Below are positions 1 through 32,420 of a stretch of DNA of 33,920 bases, one piece after another. Origin of the DNA: Vulcanimicrobiota bacterium (lineage in GTDB: Bacteria; Vulcanimicrobiota; Vulcanimicrobiia; Vulcanimicrobiales; Vulcanimicrobiaceae). The translations under genes were made by a program, and so were the position numbers. The DNA lies in NCBI GenBank assembly GCA_003135555.1, contig PLCF01000081.1, forward strand, positions 1 through 33,920, read 5' to 3'. The notes below the pieces were generated by a model that worked only from the letters and a program-made list of their open reading frames with translations, was not told where the DNA came from and made no database searches. Each line of letters opens with the position of its first letter. Within the stretch, counting starts at the first letter, position 1.

Positions 1-43
1 AGAAGCCACCAGCCTGAACAACACCGTCGTGATCAACAGCTAA
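1..43 (+). CDS. 3' end of an unidentified CDS (partial)
   Basis: Frame 2 reads EATSLNNTVVINS* with coding-like codons up to TAA at 41-43. Confidence 0.35.
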   Translation, partial: EATSLNNTVVINS

Positions 44-173
44 ATTTCGCTAAGTGTGCTGCCGCACAGTTCCGCTGCGATCGTGAGCGCATCATGGAAA
101 CTTATGGCGGACACTTTTATACGCCATACACGTCGACGTTCGATACCTAACTTATTTTCAATGGAGGAGCACC

Positions 174-386
174 ATGTCGCATACCAAACACGGAGCAAAA
201 GGACCGCATAAACAAGCTGCCATCGATCGCAAGGCAGCCGGGCATCATGATCAGGTTGCTGTTGCTGCCTATTTTCATGCCGAACATCGAGGCTTCAATG
301 GTGGTGATCCTATGGCGGACTGGCTGGCTGCCGAGATTGAAATCGATGCTGCGCTCAATAAGGGTGAAGACGCCAGCATCCACTAG
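174..386 (+). CDS. DUF2934 domain-containing small protein
   Basis: Motif VAVAAYFHAEHRGF...DPMADWLAAEIEI typical of DUF2934; GGAGGAG SD just upstream. Confidence 0.85.
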   Translation: MSHTKHGAKGPHKQAAIDRKAAGHHDQVAVAAYFHAEHRGFNGGDPMADWLAAEIEIDAALNKGEDASIH

Positions 387-489
387 CGTGCCATCCTTGC
401 GTTGCGGCATCAGCGGGAATAGGATTATCTTCGGCGAAGGAATAATTCGAGCCTAGCCTCTTTAGGAAGCTATGTATAAGCACAGAATA

Positions 490-575
490 CGGTTCGATAC
501 ATTTTGCGTTCCGCGAAACTTCGATCCCCGTTTGTCCTGAGTGCCGCAACGCAGTGTGTCGAAGGGTCAAACGGA
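490..575. repeat. REP-like mini palindromic element (TTCGA...CCGTTTGTCCTGAG...GTCGAAGG class)
   Basis: CCGTTTGTCCTGAG...GTCGAAGGGTCAAACGG: CCGTTTG/CAAACGG inverted arms plus TTCGA/TCGAA motifs in an intergenic region. Confidence 0.55.
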
Positions 576-579
576 AAAT

Positions 580-639
580 ACTGATAAAACCACCAGTCAT
601 CTGGCTAAGCCGCTAAAGCAGCAAGTCGGTGGTTATCAT
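580..639 (+). repeat. Palindromic peptide-encodable repeat, single copy (TDKTTSHLAKPLKQQVGGY)
   Basis: TGATAAAACCACC...GGTGGTTATCA inverted ends; similar to the minus-strand copies at 6486-6671. Confidence 0.7.
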
Positions 640-774
640 CGCGAACGGTATTTATGTAGAGCTTCCTTTAATCATCCACCGATTCACAACCCCAGCCTGC
701 GCAATTAATTTGTATTCGAGCCTGAGCTATTTATTTCCAGCTCAACAGCCAATGGAAATCAGGGTGAATCATAA

Positions 775-792
775 TTTGAATATACATTCAAA
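775..792. promoter_or_regulatory. Perfect 7-4-7 inverted repeat, possible transcription factor site
   Basis: TTTGAAT-ATAC-ATTCAAA in an AT-rich region ~145 bp upstream of the OmpA/MotB gene. Confidence 0.3.
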
Positions 793-936
793 AGATGCTT
801 GAATACGTTTGCACACCGGTGATTAAATATCTCATCATTTGTATTTAAGCTGAGTAACCAAATCAACAAATGAAAACCGGGAATGTCATGGATCAATCCA
901 TGATAATCTACTGCAAGGACAACGGAGGAAATAAAC

Positions 937-1689
937 ATGACCAGGAAAATTCACATCGGTATTGCCGTTCTCGCGACGGCATTCATCGCGAGCGGTTGCG
1001 TCAGCACCGGCACGTTTGAAAAGATGGAAGCAGGGAAGAATGAAGAGATCAAGTCTCTGCAGCAACAGAAGACCGCAGTGGAGCAGGACAACACCGCATT
1101 GAAGCAACAGATTGCGTCTCATGAGCAGCAGAACACGGCCATGCAGCAGCAGGTCGGTTCCCTGGAGCAACAGAAGGCTGCTTTGCTCACAGCCAGCCAG
1201 CAGCGGCAGCAGCAGTACGATGCGCTGGTGCAGGGCCTGTCGAAGGAAGTCGAGAAGGGCCAGCTCCAGGTGCGGCAGTACAAGGACATGCTGGCAGTGG
1301 ATCTGGCGGAACAGATATTCTTCGATTCAGGCAAGGCGACGCTGAAGGAGGGCGGCAAGGATGTATTGAAAAAGGTCGGCGAGGCACTGAAAGGGTATGA
1401 GAACAAAGTCATCCGGGTCGTAGGCCATACGGACAACGTGCCGCTGGCCAAGTCCCTGCAGGGTACGTTCCCGACGAACTGGGAGCTTTCGGTCGCGCGG
1501 GCGACCAACGTGGTCCGCTTTCTGCAGGAAGTCGGTATACCTCCCGAGCGCATGGTGCCGTCTGGGCGGAGCGAATACGATCCCGTGGCCACGAACGACA
1601 CGCCGGAAGGACGCAAGAAGAACCGCCGCATCGAGATCATGCTGATCGACAAGAGCTTGGAGAGCGAAATGACCAGGCCGGCCAACTGA
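937..1689 (+). CDS. OmpA/MotB family lipoprotein with coiled-coil region
   Basis: Lipobox-like IASGC, Q-rich coiled coil, C-terminal OmpA-like motifs GHTDNVP, NWELSVARA, NRRIEI; GGAGG SD. Confidence 0.9.
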   Translation: MTRKIHIGIAVLATAFIASGCVSTGTFEKMEAGKNEEIKSLQQQKTAVEQDNTALKQQIASHEQQNTAMQQQVGSLEQQKAALLTASQQRQQQYDALVQGLSKEVEKGQLQVRQYKDMLAVDLAEQIFFDSGKATLKEGGKDVLKKVGEALKGYENKVIRVVGHTDNVPLAKSLQGTFPTNWELSVARATNVVRFLQEVGIPPERMVPSGRSEYDPVATNDTPEGRKKNRRIEIMLIDKSLESEMTRPAN

Positions 1690-1750
1690 TGCCCGTATCC
1701 GCAGCGGGTTCATGAGCAGGCATTGACGTAGCGTGTAGCGCGAGATGATA

Positions 1751-1784
1751 TGGGGCCTACGTCCCCGTATCACTCGTATCACTC
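1751..1784. repeat. Junction motif variant with 9-bp tandem duplication
   Basis: TGGGGCCTACGTCCCC mini-palindrome followed by CGTATCACT x2 (1766-1774, 1775-1783). Confidence 0.5.
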
Positions 1785-1867
1785 ATAGCAGGGTTAACAG
1801 CGCACCACGAATTCCTCAAAAGCTTGCAACAACGATCATAAACTGGAGATGCCCAAGCGGTTGGGCA

Positions 1868-2083
1868 CTACAAATTATCCTGATGAATCACATGCAAGCC
1901 CGTAACATCCGCTCTGAACACCAAGGCCTCCCGTTTCGTTAATACCCGTTTTAATTTTACGTCGAAGCACACAAGTTTCTTGGTTTCCTTGTTCACCATA
2001 CAAAGCACCCGATCTCCCTCCGGATTCTTGAATTGTGTATAGAGATGCTCCCAGCATCCTTCTGCCCTATCAAATATATCCAT
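1868..2083 (-). CDS. Small hypothetical protein (71 aa)
   Basis: ATG at 2083 preceded by AAGGAG SD; hairpin TGCCCAA-GCGG-TTGGGCA right after the stop. Confidence 0.6.
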   Translation of the reverse strand: MDIFDRAEGCWEHLYTQFKNPEGDRVLCMVNKETKKLVCFDVKLKRVLTKREALVFRADVTGLHVIHQDNL

Positions 2084-2260
2084 GAACCACTCCTTCCGCT
2101 TAATGAAGACCTGCACCAGCAACGTGTGGAGAAATTAGCAGAAAGTATTCACATCCCCAAACCCATTCAGCGTTTTTGCGGATTCGGGGATGATTGGTGC
2201 AAAAACAAGTATGAACGGTATGAAAAAAGGAACAGAAGGCTGAGCGGGTTGGCACTAAAG

Positions 2261-2298
2261 CCGCTCAATTACTGCAAATTATTTGAACGGACCCCTTT
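2261..2298. repeat. Junction motif (GAACGGACCCCTTT) with degenerate left arm
   Basis: CCGCTCAATTA...TATTTGAACGG inverted pair followed by ACCCCTTT, 28 bp past the methyltransferase stop. Confidence 0.6.
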
Positions 2299-2326
2299 GG
2301 CCATTCAGGCAGCACAGATACCGCTG

Positions 2327-3133
2327 TCAGACCTTGATGGCCCGTGTCAGCAGGTACTCGTGACGGACAACATTGTCATGCAGATATTCGCTCAACATTT
2401 CTTCCATTTCATTCCGCCACGATTCGAGTCTTGCGGGGTCATGCTGCAAAGCCTTCACAGTCTGGATGAAAGGGCCCGTCTTGGCTTCCAGGAACAGGCG
2501 CAAATGCCGGGGGCTGAGCGACGGGATACCCATGATGCCCCGCTCGGAGTGCAGGCGTTTCACGCCGTCCCCCAGCCGTTGCCGCACGATAGCGACATCG
2601 CCCCACTGCACCGGCGAAGCAACGCCCGGCGGCGGCGGGACATACTTGGCGTTCAGGCTGAACATGCGGCCGATCAATTGCTCGCCGGGCCAGGTGGCGA
2701 AGGCGATGATGCCGCCGGGTTTCAGGACGCGCAGCATCTCGCTCACCGCAACCTCGGGCCGTGGCGCGAACATATGTCCGAACTGGCTCAACACGACATC
2801 GAAGCAAGCATCCGGAAAAGGCAGCGCCTCGGCATCTCCTTCATGCCAGTCAATATCGTCATGACCGGCCACCGTGGCGCTTTCCCTCGCTTGTGCGAGA
2901 AGCGCAGGAGTCAGGTCAAGTCCGGTCACCCTGGCACCCACACGCCGCGCCGTGATCGCAACCACGCCGGTTCCCGTCCCCACATCCAGCACCACCTGTC
3001 CGCCCGTCACCCTGGCATAGCGAACCAGATGTCCGGCCACGGGAGTCGTGAAAACGGCCATGTCGCCGAAATTTCCCAGTGTCCAGGTTTCACGTTGTTT
3101 GGATTTGAATGCCTCAATAGGATCAGTGTTCAT
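2327..3133 (-). CDS. Class I SAM-dependent methyltransferase (UbiE-like)
   Basis: VLDVGTGTG SAM motif, GDAEALPFPDACFDVVLSQFG, RVLKPGG; GGAGG SD before ATG 3133. The longer ORF extension overlaps KTSC and was not used. Confidence 0.92.
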   Translation of the reverse strand: MNTDPIEAFKSKQRETWTLGNFGDMAVFTTPVAGHLVRYARVTGGQVVLDVGTGTGVVAITARRVGARVTGLDLTPALLAQARESATVAGHDDIDWHEGDAEALPFPDACFDVVLSQFGHMFAPRPEVAVSEMLRVLKPGGIIAFATWPGEQLIGRMFSLNAKYVPPPPGVASPVQWGDVAIVRQRLGDGVKRLHSERGIMGIPSLSPRHLRLFLEAKTGPFIQTVKALQHDPARLESWRNEMEEMLSEYLHDNVVRHEYLLTRAIKV

Positions 3134-3170
3134 GTTTACCTCCATGGAAGAACAAATTAACAAATCGGGC

Positions 3171-3434
3171 TCAAGGTTTCCGGAATAAATCGTCGAGCGG
3201 GTTCTTGCCTGCAGGGGCGCCTCCGGAAACACGCTTCGCTGCGAACTCCTCCTCGATGTTGTCGCGATAGTAGCTCCAGGCCGCCCCCGAGCTGCTGAGA
3301 CTGCGCCAGGTATCCTCGCCAACGCCGCCGTACTGCAGCGTGCTGCCGTCGTCGAGCTGAACCTGCAGCATCCGGGCACGGGCATCGTAGCCAATGGCGC
3401 GCAACCTGCCCGAATTGATCTTCTTCATTTCCAT
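3171..3434 (-). CDS. KTSC domain-containing protein
   Basis: SGRLRAIGYDARARMLQVQLDDGSTLQYGGV...SSGAAWSYYRDNIE matches the KTSC pattern. Confidence 0.9.
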   Translation of the reverse strand: MEMKKINSGRLRAIGYDARARMLQVQLDDGSTLQYGGVGEDTWRSLSSSGAAWSYYRDNIEEEFAAKRVSGGAPAGKNPLDDLFRKP

Positions 3435-3456
3435 GGTGGCATCCGGGAACTCTTTA

Positions 3457-3475
3457 GAGCCTGGCCCATTTGATT
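3457..3475. repeat. Junction motif GAGCCTGGCCCATTTGATT
   Basis: Near-identical to 4364-4382; lies between the hypothetical gene stop and the KTSC start. Confidence 0.7.
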
Positions 3476-3491
3476 ATTTAGTTTCGGCTTG

Positions 3492-4340
3492 TTACGGCTT
3501 GCACATCGTATTTACTTCTTCCAATGCATTTTTCAGTCTTGCTGCATCGTCTAATGAATTGACGATGAGAAGTATCCTGATCTTATCCGTGGCCACAGTG
3601 CCCCAACCAGTATCTTTCGTATATCCATACTCATCCGCTATCCACAAATCGTCGCGAGGCGTATCCCAGTATGCAGACGGCCCATGTGATGTGTATTTTG
3701 CATAGCCATCATTTCTTAGATTAAGCACCGATATGGAAATATTATTGCCGCCCTTGCTCTTGCGCTCCTCAAAATAGACAGCCGCCGCACTAAAATCGCC
3801 CCCTTTAGAAGTTATTTTTCCCAATACACCGAATTCTTCCCGATTGATATTCTGGAAATCAATAACAGAGTTGATCTTGAAATCCTTCCACACTGAAAAG
3901 AGATTGCCGTTTTGGATGTGTAAATTCTCGTCAACAACCAATCGGCATCCGTCAAATTTTGCAGTCCTTGCTATGCCTTCAGGGTTTCTATTCAATGGGG
4001 TCGTTGTTTCAACAGGCTTAGCCAATAAATCAACGATCCATTTCTGGGTTTCTTCGAGCTTTGAACGGCTTGTAGCATCACTGGGGGGCGGCTGATTCCC
4101 GACTGTATTTCCATCAACTGGCTTGAGCACAACTCCTGAAGCCGAAGAAGTTGGAGAAGTTGGAGAAGCCGCTTCGTTTACGGGTGCGCCCCCTTCCATC
4201 TTGCAAGCATCGGCAGGAAGTTGAACTACTGTCCCACCCTTGAGCCTGCAATCGATCGCCATATCCGCTGCATGGCCGACGCCGAGCGGCGCGAGGGCAA
4301 GCAATATCAAGATAGCGGGGCGCAACATTTTCGTTAACAT
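3492..4340 (-). CDS. Hypothetical exported protein
   Basis: AAGGAG SD before ATG 4340; signal peptide PAILILLALAPLGVGHA; Cys pair near the N-terminus; visibly more AT-rich than the flanking KTSC copies. Confidence 0.8.
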   Translation of the reverse strand: MLTKMLRPAILILLALAPLGVGHAADMAIDCRLKGGTVVQLPADACKMEGGAPVNEAASPTSPTSSASGVVLKPVDGNTVGNQPPPSDATSRSKLEETQKWIVDLLAKPVETTTPLNRNPEGIARTAKFDGCRLVVDENLHIQNGNLFSVWKDFKINSVIDFQNINREEFGVLGKITSKGGDFSAAAVYFEERKSKGGNNISISVLNLRNDGYAKYTSHGPSAYWDTPRDDLWIADEYGYTKDTGWGTVATDKIRILLIVNSLDDAARLKNALEEVNTMCKP

Positions 4341-4363
4341 GCTTGATCTCCTTGAGTTGTTTT

Positions 4364-4382
4364 GAGTCTGGCCCCATTGATT
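4364..4382. repeat. Junction motif GAGTCTGGCCCCATTGATT
   Basis: Abuts the truncation point of the second KTSC copy. Confidence 0.75.
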
Positions 4383-4540
4383 CATGCCGCCCCCGAGCTG
4401 CTGAGACTGCGCCAGGTACCCTCGCCAACGCCGCCGTACTGCAGCGTGCTGCCGTCATCGAGCTGGACCTGCAGCATCCGGGCACGCGCATCGTAGCCAA
4501 TGGCGCGCAACTTGCCCGAATTGATCTTCTTCATTTCCAT
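4382..4540 (-). pseudogene. 3'-truncated KTSC gene copy
   Basis: 4386-4550 matches 3280-3444 with 5 mismatches in 165 bp; ends at SSGAA* and lacks the last ~35 codons. Confidence 0.85.
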
Positions 4541-4764
4541 GGTGGCATCCTGAATAGCGGTCATTCAAAATCATGGCTATCTTAAACCAAGAATAAAATC
4601 CATCATCCATTTTTCTGCATTGCCAGATTTCAAGGCGTCAGTGGTAAGCGTCAGCTTATCGCCAAATAACGATCGAAACTATTTTCAGAAAATGTGCTAC
4701 ATTTTCAACAGGAATGAAATTGATACTCAAGAGTCATATTAAATTAATAAGGTATTAGTCAATC

Positions 4765-5802
4765 ATGAAAAGAATCAGAGCAAAATCTCCCCGTGCAGAG
4801 CAGGCTTACACACTGGTGTGTGATCTACAGCAACGCTTTGTGACCAAGCTGAACACGATCAGCAAAAAATACGGTCGCGGCAAACCTTATGTGCCCACTG
4901 AATGGTTTCGTGATGAAGGCAAGCATGGCGGTGGCGTTCGATTCATGGCGACAGACGAGTCGCTATTCAATCGCGCATCGGTCAATACCTCCCAGGTTCA
5001 ATATGACGCTGATGATACAAAACAATTGGCATCCGCTTCCGCCATCTCGACGATCATTCATCCCAAAAACCCGCTGTCGCCATCGGTACACATCCATATC
5101 AGCTGGACAGAATTGAAAAATGGCAGCGGTTACTGGCGTGTCATGGCAGATCTCAATCCCGCCATTGAAAATAATGAAGACAAAGCCGAGTTCGCAAAAA
5201 AACTGAAGCAAGCAGCACCACAACAATATGCCGAAGCTGCGGCGCAGGGTGACTGGTATTTTTATATTCCCGCGTTAGGGCGCCATCGGGGCATCACGCA
5301 TTTCTACCTGGAAAATTATTCCAGCGGAAATTTTGATGCTGATCTGAAAATGGCCAGGACGGTGGGTGAAGCTGCAATCGATACTTACTGCGACATTCTG
5401 GCATCGGCAATCGAGAAACGTACTTCACCAACTGAAGCCGATTACAAAAAGCAGCTGGACTACCACACGCTCTACTTCTTCCAGGTCTTGACGCTTGATA
5501 GGGGCACCACATCGGGTTTGCTGGTTCACAACCAGAATGACGTTGGCATCCTGGCTTCGCTGCCCTCGCACATCAACCGGCCTTTGCTGGCCTCATGGAA
5601 ACAAAAGATGGCAGCGCCCCAGGATATGCTGCTGGAAAAGATGATCGCTTGCCTTACAAACGAAGAGGTGTGTCCTGTAGAAGACGATACCAAACAGGCA
5701 TTGGCCAATTGCGTGAGAAAGCACTATCAGACACATCCCGAGGCGATCGATATGCAAGCCAGCGGCAACACTGTACCTCCTACCGTAAATAATCATATTT
5801 AA
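4765..5802 (+). CDS. hemF: Oxygen-dependent coproporphyrinogen III oxidase-like protein (HemF family, divergent)
   Basis: W-x-R...GGG, FNRASVNTSQV, ISTIIHPKNPLSPSVH, ADLNP, YFYIP, LTLDRGTTSGL, ILASLP motifs. Confidence 0.8.
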   Translation: MKRIRAKSPRAEQAYTLVCDLQQRFVTKLNTISKKYGRGKPYVPTEWFRDEGKHGGGVRFMATDESLFNRASVNTSQVQYDADDTKQLASASAISTIIHPKNPLSPSVHIHISWTELKNGSGYWRVMADLNPAIENNEDKAEFAKKLKQAAPQQYAEAAAQGDWYFYIPALGRHRGITHFYLENYSSGNFDADLKMARTVGEAAIDTYCDILASAIEKRTSPTEADYKKQLDYHTLYFFQVLTLDRGTTSGLLVHNQNDVGILASLPSHINRPLLASWKQKMAAPQDMLLEKMIACLTNEEVCPVEDDTKQALANCVRKHYQTHPEAIDMQASGNTVPPTVNNHI

Positions 5803-5825
5803 TCTATAGATTAACGGGTAACCGT

Positions 5826-5846
5826 TCGGGCGTGAATTGCGCCCGA
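5826..5846. repeat. REP-like hairpin
   Basis: TCGGGCG-TGAATTG-CGCCCGA perfect 7-bp inverted repeat after the hemF stop. Confidence 0.5.
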
Positions 5847-5869
5847 TTCAATGCCTGCATTCAAAAACG

Positions 5870-5897
5870 TAAATAGCCGGAACGCTCCGGCTATTTA
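5870..5897. terminator. Probable bidirectional terminator
   Basis: Perfect 12-bp inverted repeat TAAATAGCCGGA-ACGC-TCCGGCTATTTA between convergent genes. Confidence 0.65.
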
Positions 5898-5904
5898 GAA
5901 GGTT

Positions 5905-5962
5905 GGGGGCAAGTCTACAAAGGTTGCGTATTGCGGTGTGCCACTAAGCTAGACCCGACCCC
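5905..5962. repeat. Two-armed form of the junction motif
   Basis: GGGGGCAAGTCTA (5905-5917) ... TAGACCCGACCCC (5950-5962), imperfect inverted pair with a 32-bp spacer. Confidence 0.7.
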
Positions 5963-6255
5963 GTGTTTTCTGCAAAGTCTTGAACAGCCTCCTCATCTCC
6001 GACTATCCACTCGCCATGCATTTTGATCTCTTCGTGCATCGCATCCGGTGCAAGGTCGAGATCACCCGGCCATGTGACTGCACCATCAACCACCGCAACC
6101 TCTCGAAATTTAGCCGGATCGTTCAGGTGCGAAAACACGCCAAGAAAAAAGTCTGGTGAAAAACGTACAACGCCTTCGATGCCATCGGTAAAGCGCACCC
6201 GAATAGCATGATCATCCAGAACATGAACCTCAGTGATTCTCCAGTAGGCCGCCAT
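5944..6255 (-). CDS. DUF2442 domain-containing protein
   Basis: IRVRFTDG...GVFSHLNDPAKFREV...GAVTWPGDLDLAPDAM pattern. Confidence 0.85.
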   Translation of the reverse strand: MAAYWRITEVHVLDDHAIRVRFTDGIEGVVRFSPDFFLGVFSHLNDPAKFREVAVVDGAVTWPGDLDLAPDAMHEEIKMHGEWIVGDEEAVQDFAENTGSGLA

Positions 6256-6261
6256 GATGCG

Positions 6262-6471
6262 CTACCGCTTATTTGCTTCATCTCGATTGAAGCGGAAGCC
6301 ACAAGTAGTGATGGTCGCGGCTTGGAACAAACGGGCGACTTCATCATTTCCCATCTGATCGAAATCGTCCGGGACTGTAAACTCGCCCTGCATGAAACCA
6401 AGGCGATGCGAAGTATCACACCGTGTTTCAGGATGGATGCTGCACAACTTCTGTTTGGTTGATTTGCTCAT
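6262..6471 (-). CDS. Antitoxin-like small ORF, probably a mosaic of fragments
   Basis: RLGFMQGEFTVPDDFD resembles Phd/DUF2281-type antitoxin C-termini; the FRFNRDEAN tail resembles another antitoxin C-terminus; GAGGAG SD. Confidence 0.55.
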   Translation of the reverse strand: MSKSTKQKLCSIHPETRCDTSHRLGFMQGEFTVPDDFDQMGNDEVARLFQAATITTCGFRFNRDEANKR

Positions 6472-6485
6472 CGTCTTTACTCCTC

Positions 6486-6671
6486 AGTGATATAACCAAT
6501 GACTTGCTGCGGCTTTTGCAGCTTAGTCAGATGGCTATAACCAACCACTTGGCAACTGTCTTGTGGTTGCTTATAACCAGCCACTTGGCTGCCGTCTTTT
6601 GGTAGCCTAGTGGAATGGCTAGTAGTTCCATCAGTGGGATGGCTAGTTGTTTCACCAGTAGTCTTATCAGT
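6486..6671 (-). repeat. Nested/tandem palindromic peptide-encodable repeats (TTSH x2, QVxGY x3)
   Basis: 36-bp and 24-bp period imperfect repeats; core hairpin at 6572-6623; related to 580-639. Confidence 0.75.
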
Positions 6672-6702
6672 CGCAGATTACCACGCGACTGGGCTGCCCA
6701 TC

Positions 6703-7035
6703 TCACCGCGCTAATCGACCGAGCAACACCGTCTGCAAATCGCGTCGGCTATCCAATACTGCCATAATTAAAACCTGCCGATTTTCAACGCGGTAAACGA
6801 TGCGCCAAGGCGCGCTGACGAGCTCTCTGTATTGCGAGATGCCGGTATGCAACAACTCAGGCACGATACGGCCGCGATTGGGCAATGTAACCAAGAGCGC
6901 GGCTTTGGTTTCCAACTTTTGCAAGATCGCCAGCGCATCGGCTATGCTGTCCTGAGCGATGTAATCTATGATCTCGGTCAAATCCTGTTGTGCCGTGTGA
7001 GTCCACAACACCTGATAGGACTTGGTTTCAGCCAC
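6703..7035 (-). CDS. Type II toxin, RelE/ParE family
   Basis: YQVLWTHTAQQDLTEIIDYIA...PNRGRIVPEL...YRELVSAPWRIVYRV...AVLDSRRDL; overlaps the antitoxin stop. Confidence 0.9.
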   Translation of the reverse strand: MAETKSYQVLWTHTAQQDLTEIIDYIAQDSIADALAILQKLETKAALLVTLPNRGRIVPELLHTGISQYRELVSAPWRIVYRVENRQVLIMAVLDSRRDLQTVLLGRLAR

Positions 7036-7309
7036 GTTGTTTTTTCTGCTTCAGCAAAGACGCGCGCATGGAATCGAACACTTTGCCCTGCGCTGTGACA
7101 CGGTTCTTTTGTGTATCAGCCTCGCCCTGAACCATCAGCTTCAACATCAAAAAAGCATCCTGCTGGGCGCGGTAGGTTGCATAGTCCTGCACCACCGCAC
7201 TCGCCGAACCGTTCTGCGTCAGAATGATATTCGCCCCACCGCGAGTCTCCTGTAACAAACGGCTCGCAGAAGTCTTGAAATCGGTCAGACTAATGATTTG
7301 CTCTTGCAT
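7028..7309 (-). CDS. Type II antitoxin, Phd/YefM family
   Basis: ISLTDFKTSASRLL...IILTQNG...AVVQD motif directly upstream of the toxin. Confidence 0.9.
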   Translation of the reverse strand: MQEQIISLTDFKTSASRLLQETRGGANIILTQNGSASAVVQDYATYRAQQDAFLMLKLMVQGEADTQKNRVTAQGKVFDSMRASLLKQKKQRG

Positions 7310-7368
7310 GACAGGTCACCGAATAAAGATTGAATACGGTCATTCTATCGGGAGAGGGGGAAAAGGCA

Positions 7369-7448
7369 AGTTGAATTTATTGCAATGGCGACGCGCTAGA
7401 AAAAATTCGACTCCGGTACCTTTAGCTACACACGGTACCTTTAGCTAC
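7369..7448. repeat. Junction motif variant with left arm and 16-bp duplication
   Basis: AGTTGAATTT / AAATTCGACT inverted pair, then GACTCCGGTACCTTTAGCT; CGGTACCTTTAGCTAC at 7414-7429 and 7433-7448. Confidence 0.7.
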
Positions 7449-7457
7449 GCAGGGAAA

Positions 7458-7486
7458 ACTATTGTGATGCTGACCCCATTAGCTCC
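7458..7486. repeat. Junction motif, direct repeat of 9031-9058
   Basis: ACTATTGTGATGCTGACCCCATTAGCTCC versus ACTATTGCGATGCTGACCC-ATTAGCTCC. Confidence 0.85.
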
Positions 7487-7536
7487 TCATAGTTACCTTC
7501 GAAGAACGGCCATTATTCCCATCGTCGCAAGTTGAC

Positions 7537-8022
7537 TCAATACCGCCCATTCGTCTTGTTGATGTAGTTGGTCAGTTGCTCGGTCTCCTGACTCATGCGT
7601 GCAAGGTTGGCGTGGGTTATGCGGAACAGTGCGCACATCACTTTGAAAGCCACGCGAGGGTGGTCGTCGAGTAATTTTTCCAAATCTTCCGGTGAGAGGG
7701 TATAGGCAGTCGTCGCACCTACGGCGCGCAGCGTCGCTCTGCGCGGGGTGTTTTTGACAAAAGCGCGGGTGCCTGCGCATTCGCCGACTTTCATGGTGTA
7801 GACCCTCTTTTCTTCGCCTTGCAAGTTCAGACTGGTGACGGTGAGTTGGCCCTCGGCGAGCAGAAACAGGGAACGGTAGATATCGCCTTCCTTGACCAGA
7901 AACTCGCCATCCTGAAAATGCCGTACGGCCATGCGAGCAGCCAGTTGACGGGCTTCTTCCTCGGTCAGTTCGCCTCCCAATGATGAATTACGAACAATTT
8001 TGTAATCTGTAGCATCGCTCAT
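7537..8022 (-). CDS. Stand-alone cyclic nucleotide-binding domain protein
   Basis: GEFLVKEGD...LFLLAEG...GECAG...PRRATLRA cNMP fold pattern with no C-terminal HTH; AAGGAG SD. Confidence 0.88.
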   Translation of the reverse strand: MSDATDYKIVRNSSLGGELTEEEARQLAARMAVRHFQDGEFLVKEGDIYRSLFLLAEGQLTVTSLNLQGEEKRVYTMKVGECAGTRAFVKNTPRRATLRAVGATTAYTLSPEDLEKLLDDHPRVAFKVMCALFRITHANLARMSQETEQLTNYINKTNGRY

Positions 8023-8136
8023 CGTTTAATCTCCTTGGTTAAATATTCAGTGTGCAAGATGATACCTCATAACCATGTTGGCAATGTTGCGGGGTATCCT
8101 TCATCAAGCCCCGCAAGGTTGATGGTTCAGTTTTGC

Positions 8137-8155
8137 GAGCCTTGCCCCTTTAATT
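8137..8155. repeat. Junction motif GAGCCTTGCCCCTTTAATT
   Basis: 1 bp from the methyltransferase stop codon. Confidence 0.7.
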
Positions 8156-8156
8156 C

Positions 8157-8975
8157 CTAGATTTCTACAGAGACAACGTGCGCCTGTATCTTGCCGGAGA
8201 CCTGTCCGCTTCCAAATCGCCTGGCAATGGCGCGCTCCGCAATATCGGTCGCCTCGCCGAGACGGGACTTGTCCCGAGCTTCGATCTCATTGCGCAGCGG
8301 TGTTCCCTGGCAGTAAGCCAGTGCGGGAATCCTTGCCGATGCGGCGATACTTTGCACTGCTAGGGTATCTACCAATGGAGTCGTGACGAAGCCACCGTTG
8401 CGCAGATCCCGTTGTATGGTTGCGATATCGTGGTAGCCATGCGGCGTACGCGCCAAAAAACGCGGCGGGTCATCGGGAAAGACCGATTCGAGAGAGGCTA
8501 TAACGACATCGGCAAATTCATTGTCCTCGATCCGGTCCCATACGTTAAATAGCAGCATGCCGCCAGCCTTCATGACCCGGCGGGCTTCCGAATAGGCTTT
8601 GGACTTGTCGGGAAAGAACATCGCCCCGAACTGGCACACCACCGCGTCAAACGATCCATCTTCAAAGGGCAGTTGCATGGCGTCTGCCTGCCGCCATTCG
8701 ACAGGTCGCGCCGTACCCAACTCGGCGGCCAAGTCCAGCATGGGCTGATTCAGGTCAGTGGCGATTATGGAAACATCTTCCGGTAGCACAGATGCCAAGT
8801 GCCGGGTGACCACGCCAGTGCCGGCGGCAATCTCGAGAACCCGTGCAAGCCTTCGCGTAGCCAGACGTTTTGCAATATCTTCAGCGTACGGCTCAAAGAT
8901 CAGAGGAACGATATATTCCTCGTAAAACTTTGCAACTGAACCGTCGAAGACTTTGTCGGATTGGAGGCTGCTCAT
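8157..8975 (-). CDS. Class I SAM-dependent methyltransferase
   Basis: VLEIAAGTG, TDLNQPML, ADAMQLPFEDGSFDAVVCQFG; AAGGAG SD. Confidence 0.92.
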   Translation of the reverse strand: MSSLQSDKVFDGSVAKFYEEYIVPLIFEPYAEDIAKRLATRRLARVLEIAAGTGVVTRHLASVLPEDVSIIATDLNQPMLDLAAELGTARPVEWRQADAMQLPFEDGSFDAVVCQFGAMFFPDKSKAYSEARRVMKAGGMLLFNVWDRIEDNEFADVVIASLESVFPDDPPRFLARTPHGYHDIATIQRDLRNGGFVTTPLVDTLAVQSIAASARIPALAYCQGTPLRNEIEARDKSRLGEATDIAERAIARRFGSGQVSGKIQAHVVSVEI

Positions 8976-9030
8976 TGCGAACTCCTTTCAGATAAAACAA
9001 TTGCGAAGCTGGCTACCTATACATCCTGAC

Positions 9031-9065
9031 ACTATTGCGATGCTGACCCATTAGCTCCATTAGCT
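9031..9065. repeat. Junction motif with 9-bp tandem duplication
   Basis: GATGCTGACCCATTAGCT; CCATTAGCT at 9048-9056 and 9057-9065; 3 bp from the DUF4435 stop. Confidence 0.85.
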
Positions 9066-9068
9066 ACT

Positions 9069-9986
9069 CTACGCAGGCTGGAGGATTGCCGGATAGTCTC
9101 CAATTATTTTTTCTTTTAATGAATTCAAGTCCGCTAGATTCAAGTGAGACAATACACGTAGATATAATTCACGTGTATCCATTGATTCAATATCAACATT
9201 TAAACGCGATTGCACGTATCTAACTAAACACCTAAACATATGCTTGCCGTTCAAGTGATCTGTTAGATTATTTGTGAGTGCCACAGAACCATTTTTTGGG
9301 ACAAACGCATTGTGCAATTGAATGTCCAACTGAACATCATCATCTAGCCAACTAGTCTCTCTCTCATGACAATTTTGCTTCAACATCCTTCTGTAATTTG
9401 CGCACCAATTATCCGTAGGAACTGGGAATTGTTGGTCAGCGCCCTCCAAAAGAGTATCAACTGACATCTTGGTTGTTTCCATTCTTTGAATTCCATACTT
9501 TCGAATAACCAAAAAAAGCCTTGTGACTTTTTCATAGGCATCATGGAGGCGATTCAGAAACAATACTTTGTCACCCATCAAACGATTCGCTCTGTCATTA
9601 GTTAAAGCCAATGGGTTTTCTTCTACACAAATTAATTTCAAAGCGTCAATATTCAGGAAATAGTTTTCAAAACAATGTTTCTCCAAGTAATACAACCCAT
9701 TTATACTCTGCGTAAGTCCAAGTAGATCATCAAAATCCTTGTCCGCAATAAATATGGATATACGGCCTGCAGCCCTAGGCTCTCGAGCCTTAGAAATTAG
9801 TTGAGACTTCCCTCCCAAACAAACGACAGCAAACCTACGGAGATTTGGAATTAACTTTTCAAGCAACCGCTCATAAACAGATTCGTGCGCGTCATCCTCA
9901 AAATAGAAAATAGTAGAAACGCTATCCATTACGAAGAGATCTAATACTCCTCTCGCCGCAAAAGAATATTCAGGAAAGTCCTTCAT
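9069..9986 (-). CDS. DUF4435/TOPRIM-like nuclease (PARIS AriB-like)
   Basis: YFED (TOPRIM Glu), LGGK, IADKDFD (DxD), HCFENY motifs; directly downstream of an ABC ATPase; low GC. Confidence 0.75.
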   Translation of the reverse strand: MKDFPEYSFAARGVLDLFVMDSVSTIFYFEDDAHESVYERLLEKLIPNLRRFAVVCLGGKSQLISKAREPRAAGRISIFIADKDFDDLLGLTQSINGLYYLEKHCFENYFLNIDALKLICVEENPLALTNDRANRLMGDKVLFLNRLHDAYEKVTRLFLVIRKYGIQRMETTKMSVDTLLEGADQQFPVPTDNWCANYRRMLKQNCHERETSWLDDDVQLDIQLHNAFVPKNGSVALTNNLTDHLNGKHMFRCLVRYVQSRLNVDIESMDTRELYLRVLSHLNLADLNSLKEKIIGDYPAILQPA

Positions 9987-10003
9987 AATTGATGGTAGTA
10001 AGC

Positions 10004-11446
10004 TTAATTTTCAGCTTGCGGCAAGTAACTTGGCCTTAATATCTTGCAGTTTTGTTTCGCTTGCCCAGCAATTTCTGGTGAATGAGTTGCCAAAATAATT
10101 TGACAGCTTTCAGGCCGTAATGCGGTGAGCGCGCCTATTAATTCTCTTTGCCACTCTACATGTAGCGAAAGCTCGGGCTCATCAACAACAAATATTGACT
10201 CCTTACCTGCAAGAAATGCTAGGTACGTTAGCACTATAAGTACTTGCCTCTCACCAGATGAAAGTTCTCTGACAGACCTAACTTTCTGAGGGCTAGCAAT
10301 CTCAGCCTCATCAACCACCTCCGTTTGTATCGACTTTGTAATGACAAACCCAAGCTCAAGATTTTCCGGAGAGAATTTAAGAGTTTTGCCACTATCATTC
10401 AAAAAACTTGCAGCAACATCCAGATATCTGCTTATAGGCAAATAAGCCTTAGCTGTTTCTTCTTGTTCACGATCAAATATTCTCAGAAGCTCAGTAATTT
10501 GATGTTCCTTAATACCTATCATTACCTCAACAGTCTCTTCATGCAGTGTTCTTCTACCGGTTTTCTTTTGTTGAGGGCTTTTAGGAAATGCGTGGTCAAG
10601 CAACAATTCAAAGTCACCAAAGAATTTTGTAATTACGCCTGCAACATCTGACGCATTACCTATTAAGGGAGAGCCGGTAACTCGGGTTTTGAGCTCCTGT
10701 AATTTGGTACGCAATTGCCTTTCTGTTGCTGTCCTACCCTTCGGCATGGCAGGTGGTGAAAAATGAAGTTTGATAAATTCACTCGATGCGATTCTCTGAA
10801 TTCGGTCAGCAGCTCTTCGAAATGCAAGTTGATTACGTCGCATAACTTGTATGACGTCCTCAATTGGGTCTTTAGGAGAAGAGGTTGTCTCATACCGCTG
10901 CTGCTTAGGTGAAATTCCACTGTCATAGGAAGTAGTTCCTTCAGCGTCAATTGCCAAAATTGACCTATCTAATCTCACAAATGTGAATTTGATATTCTTT
11001 TTCACATCCGCGATATGTTTTAACCACTCACTTCTTTCTGATAAGACTGCATCTATTCTGCGAACTGTGCTTGGATGTAAGTCTGAATAAGGCCTTCGAT
11101 GCTCCATTTCCATGCCGTAACGTAGCAGCCCTTGGGGTAAATCAAGTGCAATCTCTACCGGCTCCGCGTTATTGATAATCAGGCTAATTTTTTTACTTTC
11201 TAATGTATTAGTAGCTTGAATGCAGACTTTACCTAACGATTTGTCATTAAGGGAGATGGTGGCTTTTGCAAAGTTAGTTTTCCCGATTGCCTCAATATCT
11301 AGACGAATTAAATGCGACATGAGTTCCAATACACTTGTTTTGCCGGAGCCATTTCGGCCAACAATAATGGTCAAGTCTTCGAAAAAGTCCAAATTGGCGT
11401 CAACAAAACCATGTAATCCCTCAACCGAGAAACTATCTATTCGCAT
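10004..11446 (-). CDS. AAA_15/AAA_21 ABC-type ATPase (PARIS AriA-like)
   Basis: Walker A GRNGSGKT, signature LSSGERQ, Walker B VVDEPELSLH, ATHSP. Confidence 0.85.
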   Translation of the reverse strand: MRIDSFSVEGLHGFVDANLDFFEDLTIIVGRNGSGKTSVLELMSHLIRLDIEAIGKTNFAKATISLNDKSLGKVCIQATNTLESKKISLIINNAEPVEIALDLPQGLLRYGMEMEHRRPYSDLHPSTVRRIDAVLSERSEWLKHIADVKKNIKFTFVRLDRSILAIDAEGTTSYDSGISPKQQRYETTSSPKDPIEDVIQVMRRNQLAFRRAADRIQRIASSEFIKLHFSPPAMPKGRTATERQLRTKLQELKTRVTGSPLIGNASDVAGVITKFFGDFELLLDHAFPKSPQQKKTGRRTLHEETVEVMIGIKEHQITELLRIFDREQEETAKAYLPISRYLDVAASFLNDSGKTLKFSPENLELGFVITKSIQTEVVDEAEIASPQKVRSVRELSSGERQVLIVLTYLAFLAGKESIFVVDEPELSLHVEWQRELIGALTALRPESCQIILATHSPEIAGQAKQNCKILRPSYLPQAEN

Positions 11447-11530
11447 TTTTACTCTCCATTACAGTTGTTGCCGCTCTTAATCTAGAATAAATAAATTTCC
11501 AGAATCTTTGTCAGTTCAAACAAATGGCAT

Positions 11531-13195
<1,665 letters not shown>

Positions 13196-13273
13196 CGGGA
13201 CCTGGAATAGCGGCTCGGCCCAGCGTTTCCTGCGCGCTTCGACGGGGCTCACGCCTCAGCGTGACAATGGAAT

Positions 13274-13987
13274 TTATGCCACCCGGCGGCTGAGCTTGCC
13301 TAACGCGCGAGCCAGAAGTTTGGAGACGTGGCTTTGCGACAAGCCGAGGCGTTCGCCCAGTTCGGACTGGGTGAGTCCGGCGCCGTAGGTGCCGATCACG
13401 ATCATGCGCTCGCGCTCCGCGAGCTCGTCGACGGCGAGCGTCAGCGCGATGCGTTCCTCGAGCGCGATGCCGGTCACCGGGTCGGCGAGCAGGTCGATCC
13501 GTTCGGGACCGTCGGGCGAGTCGGGCTCGGGTAGCGGCACGTGCTCGATCCGGCGCAGCCCGCGCAGCTCGGCGACCGTCTCGAGGGTCACGCCGAGGGC
13601 GGCCGCGAGCTCGGCGGTGCTCGGTTCGCGCTGGTGCGTGACGGTGAACGCTTCCCAGGCCCGGGCATACCGCTTTTCGAGCACGAGCAGCACGCGCGGT
13701 GCTCGCACCATGCGCTCGTGATCCCGAACGTAGTGCATGAGCTCGCCGACGATCATGATCCAGGCGTAGGCTTGGAACGGCGTTTGCATCTCGGGCCGGT
13801 AGTTCATCGCCGCCTTGATCAGTCCCAACGCCGCGACCTGCTCGAGGTCGGCGCGGTCGTTGTGTGCCCGTTTGAACTTTCGCGCGCCGCGCACGCACAG
13901 ATGGCGGTGAGCATCGACGACGGCGTTACGCCGTTCGATCGTCCGTTCGGTACAGTAGCGCGCCACGACGGCTTCGCGTGGAGTCAT
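13274..13987 (-). CDS. RNA polymerase sigma factor, SigB/SigF/SigG family
   Basis: DLEQVAALGLIKAA, FQAYAW.MIVGELMHYVRD...VRAPR, region 4 TQSELGERLGLSQSHVSKLL. Confidence 0.9.
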   Translation of the reverse strand: MTPREAVVARYCTERTIERRNAVVDAHRHLCVRGARKFKRAHNDRADLEQVAALGLIKAAMNYRPEMQTPFQAYAWIMIVGELMHYVRDHERMVRAPRVLLVLEKRYARAWEAFTVTHQREPSTAELAAALGVTLETVAELRGLRRIEHVPLPEPDSPDGPERIDLLADPVTGIALEERIALTLAVDELAERERMIVIGTYGAGLTQSELGERLGLSQSHVSKLLARALGKLSRRVA

Positions 13988-16286: not shown

Positions 16287-17713
16287 CGCTCGGGCGTCCA
16301 GGCGACCGTTCGGGTCAACTCGTCGAACGACGTCACCCCAGCGAGGACCTTGTCGACGGCGTCGTAGCGCATCGGACGGTAGACGCCACGTGTCGCGTGC
16401 TGCGCGACGTTCACGCTCGACGCACCGGTCGCGATCATGTCGCGCGCCGCATCGTCGATTTCCATGATCTCATAGACCCCGGTGCGGCCGAGGTATCCGG
16501 TCCCCGCGCACGCGCCACAGCCGACGGCCGCGAACCACTCGTCCTGCGCGGTCCGCAGGGCCTCGCGCAGCCGCCCGGGGATGTGCGTGCGAACGCGGCA
16601 CTGCTCGCACAAAGCTCGCACGAGCCGCTGCGAAACGACCGCGGTGAGCGCGGCCGCGAGGGAGTGGCGCGCGACGCCGAGCTCGACGAGCCGGTCGATG
16701 GTGCGGGGCGCGTCGTTGGCGTGCAGCGTCGCGAACACGGTTTGTCCGGCCAGCGCCGCGGACACGGCAACCGCCGCGGTCTCTCCATCGCGCAGTTCGC
16801 CGACCATGACGACGTTGGGGTCCTGGCGCATGAATGCGCGCAACACCAGCGGGAAGGTCAAACCGGCGCGCGGGTTCACCTGTACCTGCGAGACGCCGCT
16901 CAATCGCATCTCGACCGGATCCTCGACCGAGCACACGTTGCGCGAGCGCGCGTCGAGCTCGGCGACCGAGGCGTAGAGGGTCGTGGTCTTGCCGCTTCCC
17001 GTCGGGCCCGAAACCAACGTGAAGCCCCACGGCGCGTGGACGGCGGCACGATAGCGTTCCAGGACCGGCGCCGGCATCCCCAGCGTGTTCAGACTCGGCG
17101 TTGCGCCGTACCGGTCGAGCAGGCGGATCACGAGCTTCTCACCGTCGAGCGTCGGCACCGACGCGACGCGCGCGTCGATCTCGCGCCCTTCGAACGGAAT
17201 GCCGCAACGCCCGTCCTGGGGTTGACGGCGATCGGCGATGTCCATCCCAGCGAGCAGCTTCACGCGCGAAGCGAAGGCTGCGAAGAGCTCGGCCGGGATG
17301 GGCTCGAGGTCGCGCAAGATGCCATCGACGCGCAGCCGCACCCGCCCGCCTCCGCCCGGGCTTGGCTCGATGTGGATGTCGCTTGCATGCGCAGCGACGG
17401 CGCGGGCAAAGGTTAGGTCGACCGCGCGAACCGCGGGCTGATCGCCGTTCCGATCCGCGGCATCGCGCGCTGCCGGTGCTCCGCCGTACGCGACGCGGAG
17501 GTTCTGCCGGATCGCCTCGCGCCCCATGGGGAGCGGACGGACCCGCATGTGTGTTGCGGCGCAGACGGTGTCGATCACCGTCGCGTCGCTAGGATCGCTC
17601 AGCGCCACCGCCAGGACACCGTCGGCGATGCTCAGCGGCAAGACGTCGTAGCGGAACGCGATGGCGCGCGGCACGCGCGCGATCGCTTCGGGATTGGGAG
17701 CAAAGGTCGCCAT
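16283..17713 (-). CDS. pilB: Type IV pilus assembly ATPase PilB/GspE
   Basis: ASDIHIEP, MDIADRRQPQDG, GPTGSGKTTTLY, RQDPNVVMVGELRD, CEQC...CGAC zinc motif, GRTGVYE. Confidence 0.9.
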   Translation of the reverse strand: MATFAPNPEAIARVPRAIAFRYDVLPLSIADGVLAVALSDPSDATVIDTVCAATHMRVRPLPMGREAIRQNLRVAYGGAPAARDAADRNGDQPAVRAVDLTFARAVAAHASDIHIEPSPGGGGRVRLRVDGILRDLEPIPAELFAAFASRVKLLAGMDIADRRQPQDGRCGIPFEGREIDARVASVPTLDGEKLVIRLLDRYGATPSLNTLGMPAPVLERYRAAVHAPWGFTLVSGPTGSGKTTTLYASVAELDARSRNVCSVEDPVEMRLSGVSQVQVNPRAGLTFPLVLRAFMRQDPNVVMVGELRDGETAAVAVSAALAGQTVFATLHANDAPRTIDRLVELGVARHSLAAALTAVVSQRLVRALCEQCRVRTHIPGRLREALRTAQDEWFAAVGCGACAGTGYLGRTGVYEIMEIDDAARDMIATGASSVNVAQHATRGVYRPMRYDAVDKVLAGVTSFDELTRTVAWTPER

Positions 17714-17758
17714 GCGTGACGGATCGCCAAATCCGACGCCGAAAAAGAGGCAATATTT

Positions 17759-17792
17759 CGGGAGCTAGCTTAAACTTTCTTAAGGGCTCCCG
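17759..17792. promoter_or_regulatory. Stem-loop/palindrome upstream of pilB
   Basis: CGGGAGC...CTTAAA-CTTT-CTTAAG...GCTCCCG, an AT-rich island in GC-rich DNA. Confidence 0.4.
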
Positions 17793-17865
17793 TTACGGCC
17801 GCGGTTGCCGACGCACGACCCGCAGCGTGCTGCAAAACACTGCTGTCACTGCGTCGTGCGCGCGT

Positions 17866-32388: not shown

Positions 32389-32420
32389 CGCAGCACGGCG
32401 GCACGACCCGGGACGGAAAT

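Follow-up and report, generated by a model that had tools for sequence, protein, structure and literature searches.

Closest among described systems to the one reported here are REP (repetitive extragenic palindromic) elements and the REP-associated tyrosine transposases (RAYTs) that go with them. In the part of PMC5581495 that treats these systems, repeats flanking the RAYT gene are the hallmark, RAYTs and their repeats are widespread, and moving REPINs (hairpin-forming REP doublets) is the only function so far assigned to the enzymes. Our analysis concerns a 33,920-nt stretch filed under Vulcanimicrobiota (contig PLCF01000081.1 of assembly GCA_003135555.1; the window means this whole stretch at its full length) and a 30-nt element within it, M1 (AAAACTATTGCGATGCTGACCCCATTAGCT), which in related genomes brackets a RAYT-like gene and stands at the points where accessory gene blocks change partners. 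In common with REP/RAYT systems, a protein that has a single-tyrosine (Y1) HUH (histidine-hydrophobic residue-histidine) domain and RAYT as its best family match is enclosed by inverted copies of a short, mostly extragenic and scattered repeat. The differences are that M1 is not palindromic and seldom forms doublets (8/103 copies), that genomes hold 1-6 close copies rather than the tens to hundreds known for REPs, and that copies stand singly and co-oriented at cargo borders with a polar linkage. Judged on sequence, the M1 system would be a variant of the REP/RAYT kind with cassette-like behaviour. We found no printed description of it: literature searches combining RAYT with cassette or hotspot returned general REP/RAYT papers only, and the 12-nt core strings are in no relevant paper (supplements aside).

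Four other kinds of system invite comparison. Integrons and clusters of attC sites lacking an integron integrase (CALINs) resemble M1 arrays in their co-oriented units of one site plus 1-4 genes, in a homology break at one fixed site end, in toxin-antitoxin and defence cargo and in having no recombinase inside the array, but M1 shows no link to the integron integrase IntI, is unfolded and lies mostly 5' of and antisense to its gene, and its arrays sit between core genes. Insertion sequences (IS) of the IS200/IS605 family use the same enzyme superfamily and likewise show neither target duplication nor classical terminal inverted repeats, and a second junction element, C2 (see below), is inserted in this manner; their two hairpin ends differ from each other, however, and their target is a fixed tetranucleotide, whereas M1 is hairpin-free and no flanking base is conserved over 103 copies. 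The staphylococcal cassette chromosome (SCC) islands at the 3' end of rlmH also stack modules downstream of a housekeeping gene with short direct repeats between them, many of these modules having no recombinase of their own, and copies of the gene's 3' end are present; yet SCC repeats belong to the rlmH end itself and serve serine recombinases, while M1 is not part of the core gene ettA and the ettA fragments in its arrays measure 33-180 nt. IS26 units and relaxase recombination between two origins of transfer (oriT x oriT) share a fixed end next to a variable neighbouring stretch, direct repeats between cargo segments and adjacent deletions or duplications that start exactly at the element end, but IS26 carries its own DDE (Asp-Asp-Glu) transposase in every repeat, where M1 is 30 nt and non-coding, and oriT recombination serves conjugation.

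A first-pass annotation of the window had noticed a short GACCCC/GCCCC motif at nine gene junctions and read it as delimiting a cassette array. All of its strings are present on the + strand by direct reading, and the motif is the core of a longer real element: in an alignment of 103 non-redundant copies the conserved extent of M1 is exactly 30 nt, with unconserved flanks. We call the AAAAC end its head and the ATTAGCT end its tail. Six or seven of the nine sites belong to M1; those at 2285, 5952 and 1757 are unsupported, 2285 being weak, 5952 falling within the DUF2442 open reading frame (ORF) 5944-6255 and 1757 having no support as an M1 copy. Using a profile built from relatives' copies, and direct reading, we list the following in the window:

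7455-7484, + strand: canonical M1, head AAAAC.., tail ..CCCCATTAGCT; profile match 7449-7509 (E 3.7e-12), one mismatch to the 24-nt core.
9031-9065, + strand: canonical M1, one C shorter, its final 9 nt (CCATTAGCT) duplicated, ~3 nt short of the AriB-like stop; profile match 9021-9073 (E 7.2e-9).
8994-9020, + strand: degenerate M1, head and core only; profile match 8972-9011 (E 3e-3).
7400-7448, + strand: M1 variant AAAAAATTCGACTCCGGTACCTTTAGCTAC plus a repeat of its final 15 nt; no profile match, variant recurs in loci L023, L034, L036 and L053.
8128-8156, + strand: M1 variant abutting the stop of methyltransferase 2; direct reading, no profile match, similar variant in L037.
4354-4382, + strand: M1 variant, its tail abutting a KTSC gene cut after nt 168; weak profile match 4368-4386 (E 8.2).
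3445-3481, + strand: M1 variant bordering the intact KTSC cassette on its 5' side; homologous by position to canonical M1.
2283-2302, + strand: doubtful M1-like string 3' of methyltransferase 1; direct reading, no profile match, relatives with the same gene lack the string.

Run over the whole genome (3.57 Mb), the profile returned five matches at E<=10, namely the three window copies and one non-significant match each on contigs C58 (E 0.57) and C16 (E 9.7). Three iterations of a class-1 profile left the variants at 3457, 4364 and 8137 unreached; we accept these, and 7409 with them, because each occupies the place that canonical M1 has in the corresponding cassette of relatives. In KTSC-cassette contexts M1 or a graded variant follows CATGGTGGCATCCTG in 11/13, window position 3428 included, and the GACTCCGGTACCTTTAG variant was seen again in L023, L034, L036 and L053. 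The pattern CTG[GA]CCCC?ATT, picked after the sites were known, matches four times in C13:1-11500, always on the + strand, with three further matches, on both strands, elsewhere in the genome. The distance between the end of the motif and the nearest following stop or break on the minus strand is 0-1 nt at 8137 and 4364, ~3 at 9039, ~11 at 3457, ~28 at 2285 and ~47 at 7466. Tandem duplications of 8-21 nt at the tail are common and the window has two of them (CCATTAGCT twice and GGTACCTTTAGCTAC twice). The end of ettA (GCCGATTAGTC) and the M1 tail (CCCCATTAGCT) are alike at 8/11 bases, possibly by chance, and a six-codon mini-ORF on the reverse strand of M1 was dropped since it is not kept in variants.

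With one genome per species (185,579 species) searched, the exact M1 core occurs on 47 contigs. By the names of the records, 24 belong to Gallionella, Gallionellaceae, Sideroxydans or Ferrigenium and a further 13 to beta- or other Pseudomonadota; the other 10 hold single matches without the extended consensus or are small contigs with Gallionella-like content. At up to three mismatches the 24-nt core is found in 85/201 sampled genomes of the Gallionellaceae, which are iron oxidisers (reversed control, 0), and in 0/43 genomes of the host's own genus. These two scans, with the pattern counts and the profile matches, reject a chance motif. Profile matches number at most 8-12 per 20-kb locus, 69/87 copies lie outside crude ORFs, and neighbours run antisense to M1 in 52/69 cases on the tail side and 41/64 on the head side. 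M1 arrays are located between the core genes ettA and rsgA, and in 5/6 loci that hold both genes M1 lies within 50 nt upstream of rsgA.

Across Gallionellaceae there are matches to a Y1 HUH gene that adjoin M1 matches. The M1-linked protein is 243 aa long with an HVH motif in its translation; such proteins match Pfam Y1_Tnp above cut-off, and their best NCBIfam match is the REP-associated tyrosine transposase model NF047646 at 72-77 bits, below its cut-off of 80. M1 precedes the RAYT-like start codon by 2-40 nt in 17/18 gene starts, its tail pointing away, and it stands just past the stop in 10/13 full genes, again with the head towards the gene and the tail outward. Two inverted M1 copies, heads inward and tails outward, bracket the RAYT-like gene in relatives. 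This is the sense in which the earlier lead towards HUH/RAYT enzymes stands, namely that inverted motif copies flank such a gene in relatives; in the window no RAYT is present. Genomes with a close RAYT (>=75% identity) carry M1 in 11/12 cases as opposed to 74/189 of the others (Fisher p 4e-4, kinship ignored), and the association is limited to this close RAYT subfamily. M1 is best explained, to our minds, as the repeat that goes with a RAYT-like Y1 HUH transposase.

In some genomes the RAYT-like gene is present twice or in partial tandem copies. At L088 5367-6539 and L093 2000-3100 a partial and a full RAYT stand in tandem, each with its own M1 before it. In L088 the partial copy breaks off at aa 138, in L093 at aa 111, which points to independent duplications that start at an M1 tail.

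The two ends of M1 differ in what they are joined to. Where a homologue exists elsewhere, alignments end within 12 nt at 57/68 tail junctions and span only 3, whereas at head junctions they end in 21/67 cases and span 35; control points 60-200 nt away show alignment ends at 10-13 of 38-68 on the tail side and 4-15 of 51-65 on the head side. For M1 pairs in different loci the head flank alone is shared in 35, the tail flank alone in 2 and both flanks in 0, it being understood that these polarity counts include cassettes such as KTSC many times over and loci from related genomes. Because head flanks are shared and tail flanks break, we take the unit to be [tail-M1-head + cargo], which changes partners at the tail. 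The claim that the motifs delimit shuffled blocks of 1-4 genes holds in this form, as breakpoints between genomes fall at the motif (tail, 57/68). Arrays consist of single co-oriented M1 copies at the borders of cargo blocks with the cargo on the head side, and the unit is arranged like the left half of the RAYT element, in which the gene lies on the head side as well.

Cut genes add to this picture. The second KTSC copy of the window ends after nt 168 exactly at an M1 tail (window 4382); L028, with one KTSC and no insert, represents the uninterrupted site, and in L047 KTSC is cut at a different point and again joined to the tail. Extra ettA 3' fragments of 33-180 nt are contained in the arrays, and those of 33, 53, 75 and 156 nt as well as one of ~160 nt (L009) begin immediately behind an M1 tail. 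The RAYT gene, too, is found cut, at aa 138, 111 and 203 (L088, L093 and L097, respectively), and joined to the tail, with a full copy next to it in two cases. A fixed link between the M1 tail and its tail-side neighbour was considered and rejected, as various tails, or C2, come after the stop of a ParE toxin gene.

HUH enzymes introduce nicks into single-stranded DNA and remain attached to the 5' end. Because they do so, a scheme may be envisaged in which a RAYT-type HUH enzyme, supplied in trans, would nick single-stranded DNA at the outer edge of the M1 tail. Nicks at two direct M1 copies would give a circle of [M1 + cargo] and a resealed donor, at another M1 the reaction, run in reverse, would insert the circle, and a bound tail joined to a stray 3' end would produce truncations and partial duplications; over repeated rounds arrays could be built and reshuffled. 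That M1 has the RAYT-linked origin proposed above and that a trans-acting RAYT-type enzyme cuts [M1 + cargo] cassettes at the M1 tail and rejoins them there is the reading we prefer, with a probability of about 0.55. A fuller version, which we put forward tentatively and consider doubtful as a whole, would have a RAYT-type HUH enzyme run a second, integron-independent cassette platform that uses one unstructured 30-nt site per cassette, tail nicks, circles and re-insertion between core genes.

With a RAYT-linked repeat placed exactly, and in a polar manner, at the points where accessory blocks are shuffled, the role of RAYTs becomes a testable question. If the proposal is true, integron-like gene capture would also exist with another enzyme and another type of site as its basis, and such arrays would escape software that looks for attC sites or integrases. 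RAYTs, of which it has so far been an open question how they benefit the host, would gain a role in gene capture, and defence, toxin-antitoxin and other accessory genes would be stacked by it between core genes such as ettA and rsgA.

Several of our own results weigh against trans-acting cutting at the M1 tail. Known Y1 HUH enzymes act on hairpins, and M1 folds no better than shuffled sequence (z +0.98 to -1.17) and has an inverted partner within 150 nt in 8/103 copies, so that it is not palindromic in the manner of a REP. The number of close copies (1-6 per genome at <=3 mismatches of 24) is low, the NF047646 scores fall short of the model's cut-off, and the polarity counts are redundant in the way described. 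Among M1-bearing genomes 74/85, including the complete genome G001, are without a close RAYT, an association of M1 with RAYT-like genes in general (E<=1e-30) was tried and not obtained (33/88 vs 52/113), and neither the window nor any ettA-rsgA array examined (106 ORFs, 5 loci) contains a RAYT gene. Neither a circle nor an excision junction was seen, and M1 as a self-inserting mini-element was rejected, there being no locus in which both flanks are joined and M1 is absent.

The main rival, which we regard as possible but rather unlikely, sees M1 as a passive repeat dispersed by RAYT in dispensable intergenic DNA, with cargo turnover brought about by transfer and by homologous recombination anchored in ettA and rsgA; M1 would then be at most a short patch of homology or a fragile point, and RAYT would never move cargo. 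Consistent with this, the arrays lie between two core genes without any recombinase inside, most M1-bearing genomes have no close RAYT, and the duplications of KTSC and ettA are compatible with a homologous crossover of Campbell type. Moving REPINs as the sole function so far assigned to RAYTs, in the part of PMC5581495 already referred to, is in keeping with it too. What this reading leaves unexplained is the polarity: patches of homology should break symmetrically, yet we observe 57/68 at the tail vs 21/67 at the head and a flank sharing of 35 vs 2. Moreover, cut genes, RAYT included, join exactly at the tail edge from many different positions, and 30 bases offer little homology for RecA.

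Alternatively, M1 might be a transcription signal (a promoter or 5' leader) at the front of each cassette, so that the polarity would reflect promoter-plus-gene units. M1 does lie upstream of the next gene in gene sense (antisense neighbours: head 41/64, tail 52/69) and ~35 nt upstream of rsgA, and its reverse strand, TGGGGTCAGCATCGCA, has GG and GC spaced as in the consensus of sigma-54 promoters. We nevertheless think it improbable, as the DUF2281-PIN cassette and others have M1 at their 3' end, where it overlaps the stop codon, as the GC is lost in variants, and as Rfam holds no family at E<=1; inverted copies around RAYT, micro-duplications of the tail and genes cut at the tail would also go unexplained.

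Less probable still, to the point of being nearly untenable, is an atypical integron cassette array or CALIN in which M1 serves IntI as an odd attC site. The co-orientation of the array and its small, integron-typical cargo including toxin-antitoxin pairs would suit this idea, as would the abundance of IntI in Gallionellaceae, where 117/201 sampled genomes have a match over the curated cut-off. But an attC site is recognised by a folded structure with paired R and L boxes and M1 has no hairpin, and IntI is as frequent with M1 (53/85) as without it (69/116), which is to say there is no association. Four of 5 array-bearing Gallionellaceae genomes do have IntI, though far from the M1 arrays (~100 kb away in G001), and G002 has the array and no IntI over the cut-off. 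In G001, G003 and G004 the repeats of the arrays that adjoin IntI are of another kind, several having CCTAAC / GGGTTAG core-like ends, and M1 is absent from these arrays. With no IntI over the cut-off in the host genome either, the array is integron-independent, as the first-pass annotation had it. A Xer-dependent dif-like module is rejected by the lack of dyad symmetry in the 103-copy consensus (the dif consensus being 28 nt long, its two inverted arms separated by a 6-nt centre), an IS91/ISCR-type two-tyrosine (Y2) HUH enzyme by the presence of PF04986 in only 1/5 array-bearing genomes and not near the array, and a tRNA-derived att site by the position of the window's only tRNA, at 32,420.

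Two observations from the surroundings of IntI deserve mention. In L068 of G004 (16,945-18,654, beside IntI) there are three repeats of 200-209 nt, 99-100% identical and ~0.7-0.8 kb apart, which may be cassette ends with unusually long conserved sites. For all the IntI genes in Gallionellaceae, we found no literature that brings Gallionella together with integrons and gene cassettes. In at least 13 Gallionellaceae genomes (G095, G141, G147, G149, G151, G182, G193, G194, G201, G212, G213, G222 and G228) a paralogue of the RAYT-like protein, 47-57% identical to the M1-linked one, is encoded 0.3-5 kb from the IntI gene. We are not aware of any described link between a Y1 HUH gene and IntI.

The second junction element mentioned above, C2, is present in the window as follows:

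6492-6660, + strand: C2, three tandem copies (one of them partial) of a ~62-nt hairpin element, the best at 6569-6636; supported by fold and covariation.

As DNA, C2 folds at -12.7 kcal/mol (z -3.3), and 5/10 of its pairs show a compensatory change among 18 copies. It occurs in the window and in L009, L028, L054 and L090, with micro-duplications of its tail. Elsewhere it sits inside extra ettA fragments at two positions, GGCG^GAAGG and GGCGAA^GAGGG, without target duplication. Such insertion is as expected for a single-strand element of HUH type; a RAYT flanked by C2 was not found.

As to whose DNA the array is, GC varies between 0.39 and 0.65 across the blocks up to 11,500, in line with the differing GC content noted at first, and lies at 0.63-0.76 beyond. 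No other part of the host assembly (3.57 Mb, 98 contigs, 68% GC, 84% complete) resembles the first 11.5 kb, and the cassettes are 82-93% identical to Gallionella contigs. An ABC-F gene at 11531-13252, ettA, which has an open frame of 573 aa, is made up of two types:

11531-11905, - strand: ettA 3' part of ~375 nt, Gallionellaceae type; identity 0.84-0.91 to 14 Gallionellaceae genes and 0.64-0.82 to 9 same-genus genes.
11906-13252, - strand: ettA 5' part, of the type found in the 68% GC genus; same-genus genes are mostly 0.81-0.93 identical (0.65-0.79 in low bins) and Gallionellaceae genes 0.46-0.86.

From 11531 to ~11905 the gene is as near to the 14 Gallionellaceae ettA genes as those are among themselves, and from ~11,906 on its identity to them drops to the between-group level, which sets the switch of type at ~11,880-11,910. 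In Gallionellaceae the gene order is P-type ATPase, ferritin-like gene, ettA, variable array and rsgA; in same-genus genomes of the host the counterpart of gene 13,274-13,987 does not adjoin ettA. By sequence, window 1-~11,900 (48% GC) looks like a piece of a Gallionellaceae chromosome, comprising the end of ettA and the variable spot after it, and the array, judged by its ettA type and the 0/43 same-genus genomes with M1, belongs to Gallionellaceae and not to the 68% GC genome under which it is filed.

The join itself is probably an assembly chimera, and we judge it so because it falls inside conserved ettA. The other possibility, that the contig is correct and the 68% GC organism acquired a Gallionellaceae array by recombination within ettA, seems unlikely to us but has a case: the submitted assembly is unbroken over the join, the ettA frame is intact at 573 aa, and depth in the probable source run X1 is alike on both sides (14.5 on the array side vs 14-20 on the other), which fits a true junction as well as a chimera and so counts against our own view. 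Set against this, the type switches where a universal gene is most conserved, the array side has not moved in GC towards the host and retains its identity to Gallionella contigs, ettA followed by the array is the native Gallionellaceae arrangement, and M1 is missing from the same-genus genomes. The run evidence (X1, X3, X5 and X6) consists of assembled contigs. In X1 a contig that covers 9,000-11,699 stops at the latter position and the next one listed starts at 11,885, leaving 11,700-11,884 unbridged among the pieces listed, a point against a correct contig. Near-identical contigs in X3, X5 and X6 start at 11,891-11,900, and none covers 9,000-11,391, an uncovered part that proves nothing. Taken together, the run data demonstrate neither a chimera nor a true junction. 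No second copy of the host-type ettA end is present in the host's own assembly, which is 84% complete. On the chimera reading, the window illustrates that a conserved gene such as ettA can weld the DNA of two phyla into one contig of a metagenome-assembled genome (MAG), which would create a false signal of horizontal transfer. Short contigs with Gallionellaceae-type ettA and M1, similar in content to the window's array and a further point against a correct contig, are filed in MAGs of unrelated phyla, namely L021 (Sedimentisphaerales) and L030 (Geobacteraceae), and look like mis-binned regions.

The cargo of the window consists of small genes, nearly throughout on the minus strand, with a sole opposite-strand block at 4765-5802:

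10004-11446, - strand: AriA-like ATPase of a PARIS-like pair; PADLOC AriA (E 4e-33), Pfam AAA_15/AAA_21.
9069-9986, - strand: AriB-like DUF4435 protein; PADLOC AriB (E 3e-12), Pfam DUF4435.
8157-8975, - strand: class I methyltransferase 2; Pfam Methyltransf_11, cassette 8170-9058 common to L035.
7537-8022, - strand: cyclic-nucleotide-binding protein; Pfam cNMP_binding, in 11 other loci with other neighbours.
6703-7309, - strand: Phd/ParE toxin-antitoxin pair (Pfam); 6702-7376 common to L022, L044, L014, L054 and L042.
5944-6471, - strand: 69-aa ORF and DUF2442 protein (Pfam DUF2442).
4765-5802, + strand: coproporphyrinogen-oxidase-like gene; Pfam Coprogen_oxidas (E 4e-30), residues 16-271 of 345.
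4383-4564, - strand: KTSC gene, 3'-truncated; 4383-4550 repeats 3277-3444 at 96%.
3492-4342, - strand: exported protein not assigned to a known family, with an M1 variant on either side; arranged alike in L006 and L051.
2327-3434, - strand: intact KTSC gene (3171-3434) and methyltransferase 1 (2327-3133); Pfam, common to L028, L019 and L022.

At 9069-11446 an AriA ATPase adjoins an AriB DUF4435 protein with 17 nt between the genes, the arrangement by which PARIS is recognised. Past the ParE stop the Phd/ParE cassette has a different neighbour in each of its five other loci (L022, L044, L014, L054 and L042). Pfam and PADLOC searches gave no match for the exported protein 3492-4342, and the Rfam scan of window 1-12,000 gave nothing at E<=1. 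In the low-GC part no integrase or transposase Pfam domain is found, and with no IntI over the cut-off genome-wide the absence of such genes reported earlier is borne out. Near-identity searches with 1-11,500 yielded, among plasmids, only a 240-nt methyltransferase match in Cupriavidus and, among phages, no match.

Two cargo genes merit a remark. The 161-aa cNMP-binding protein (7537-8022) matches the nucleotide-binding part of PADLOC models for Pycsar-type effectors (E 3e-12) and is without an effector domain. The coproporphyrinogen-oxidase-like gene is KTSC-linked in L028 and L051 as well, placing a haem-pathway-like gene among accessory cassettes.

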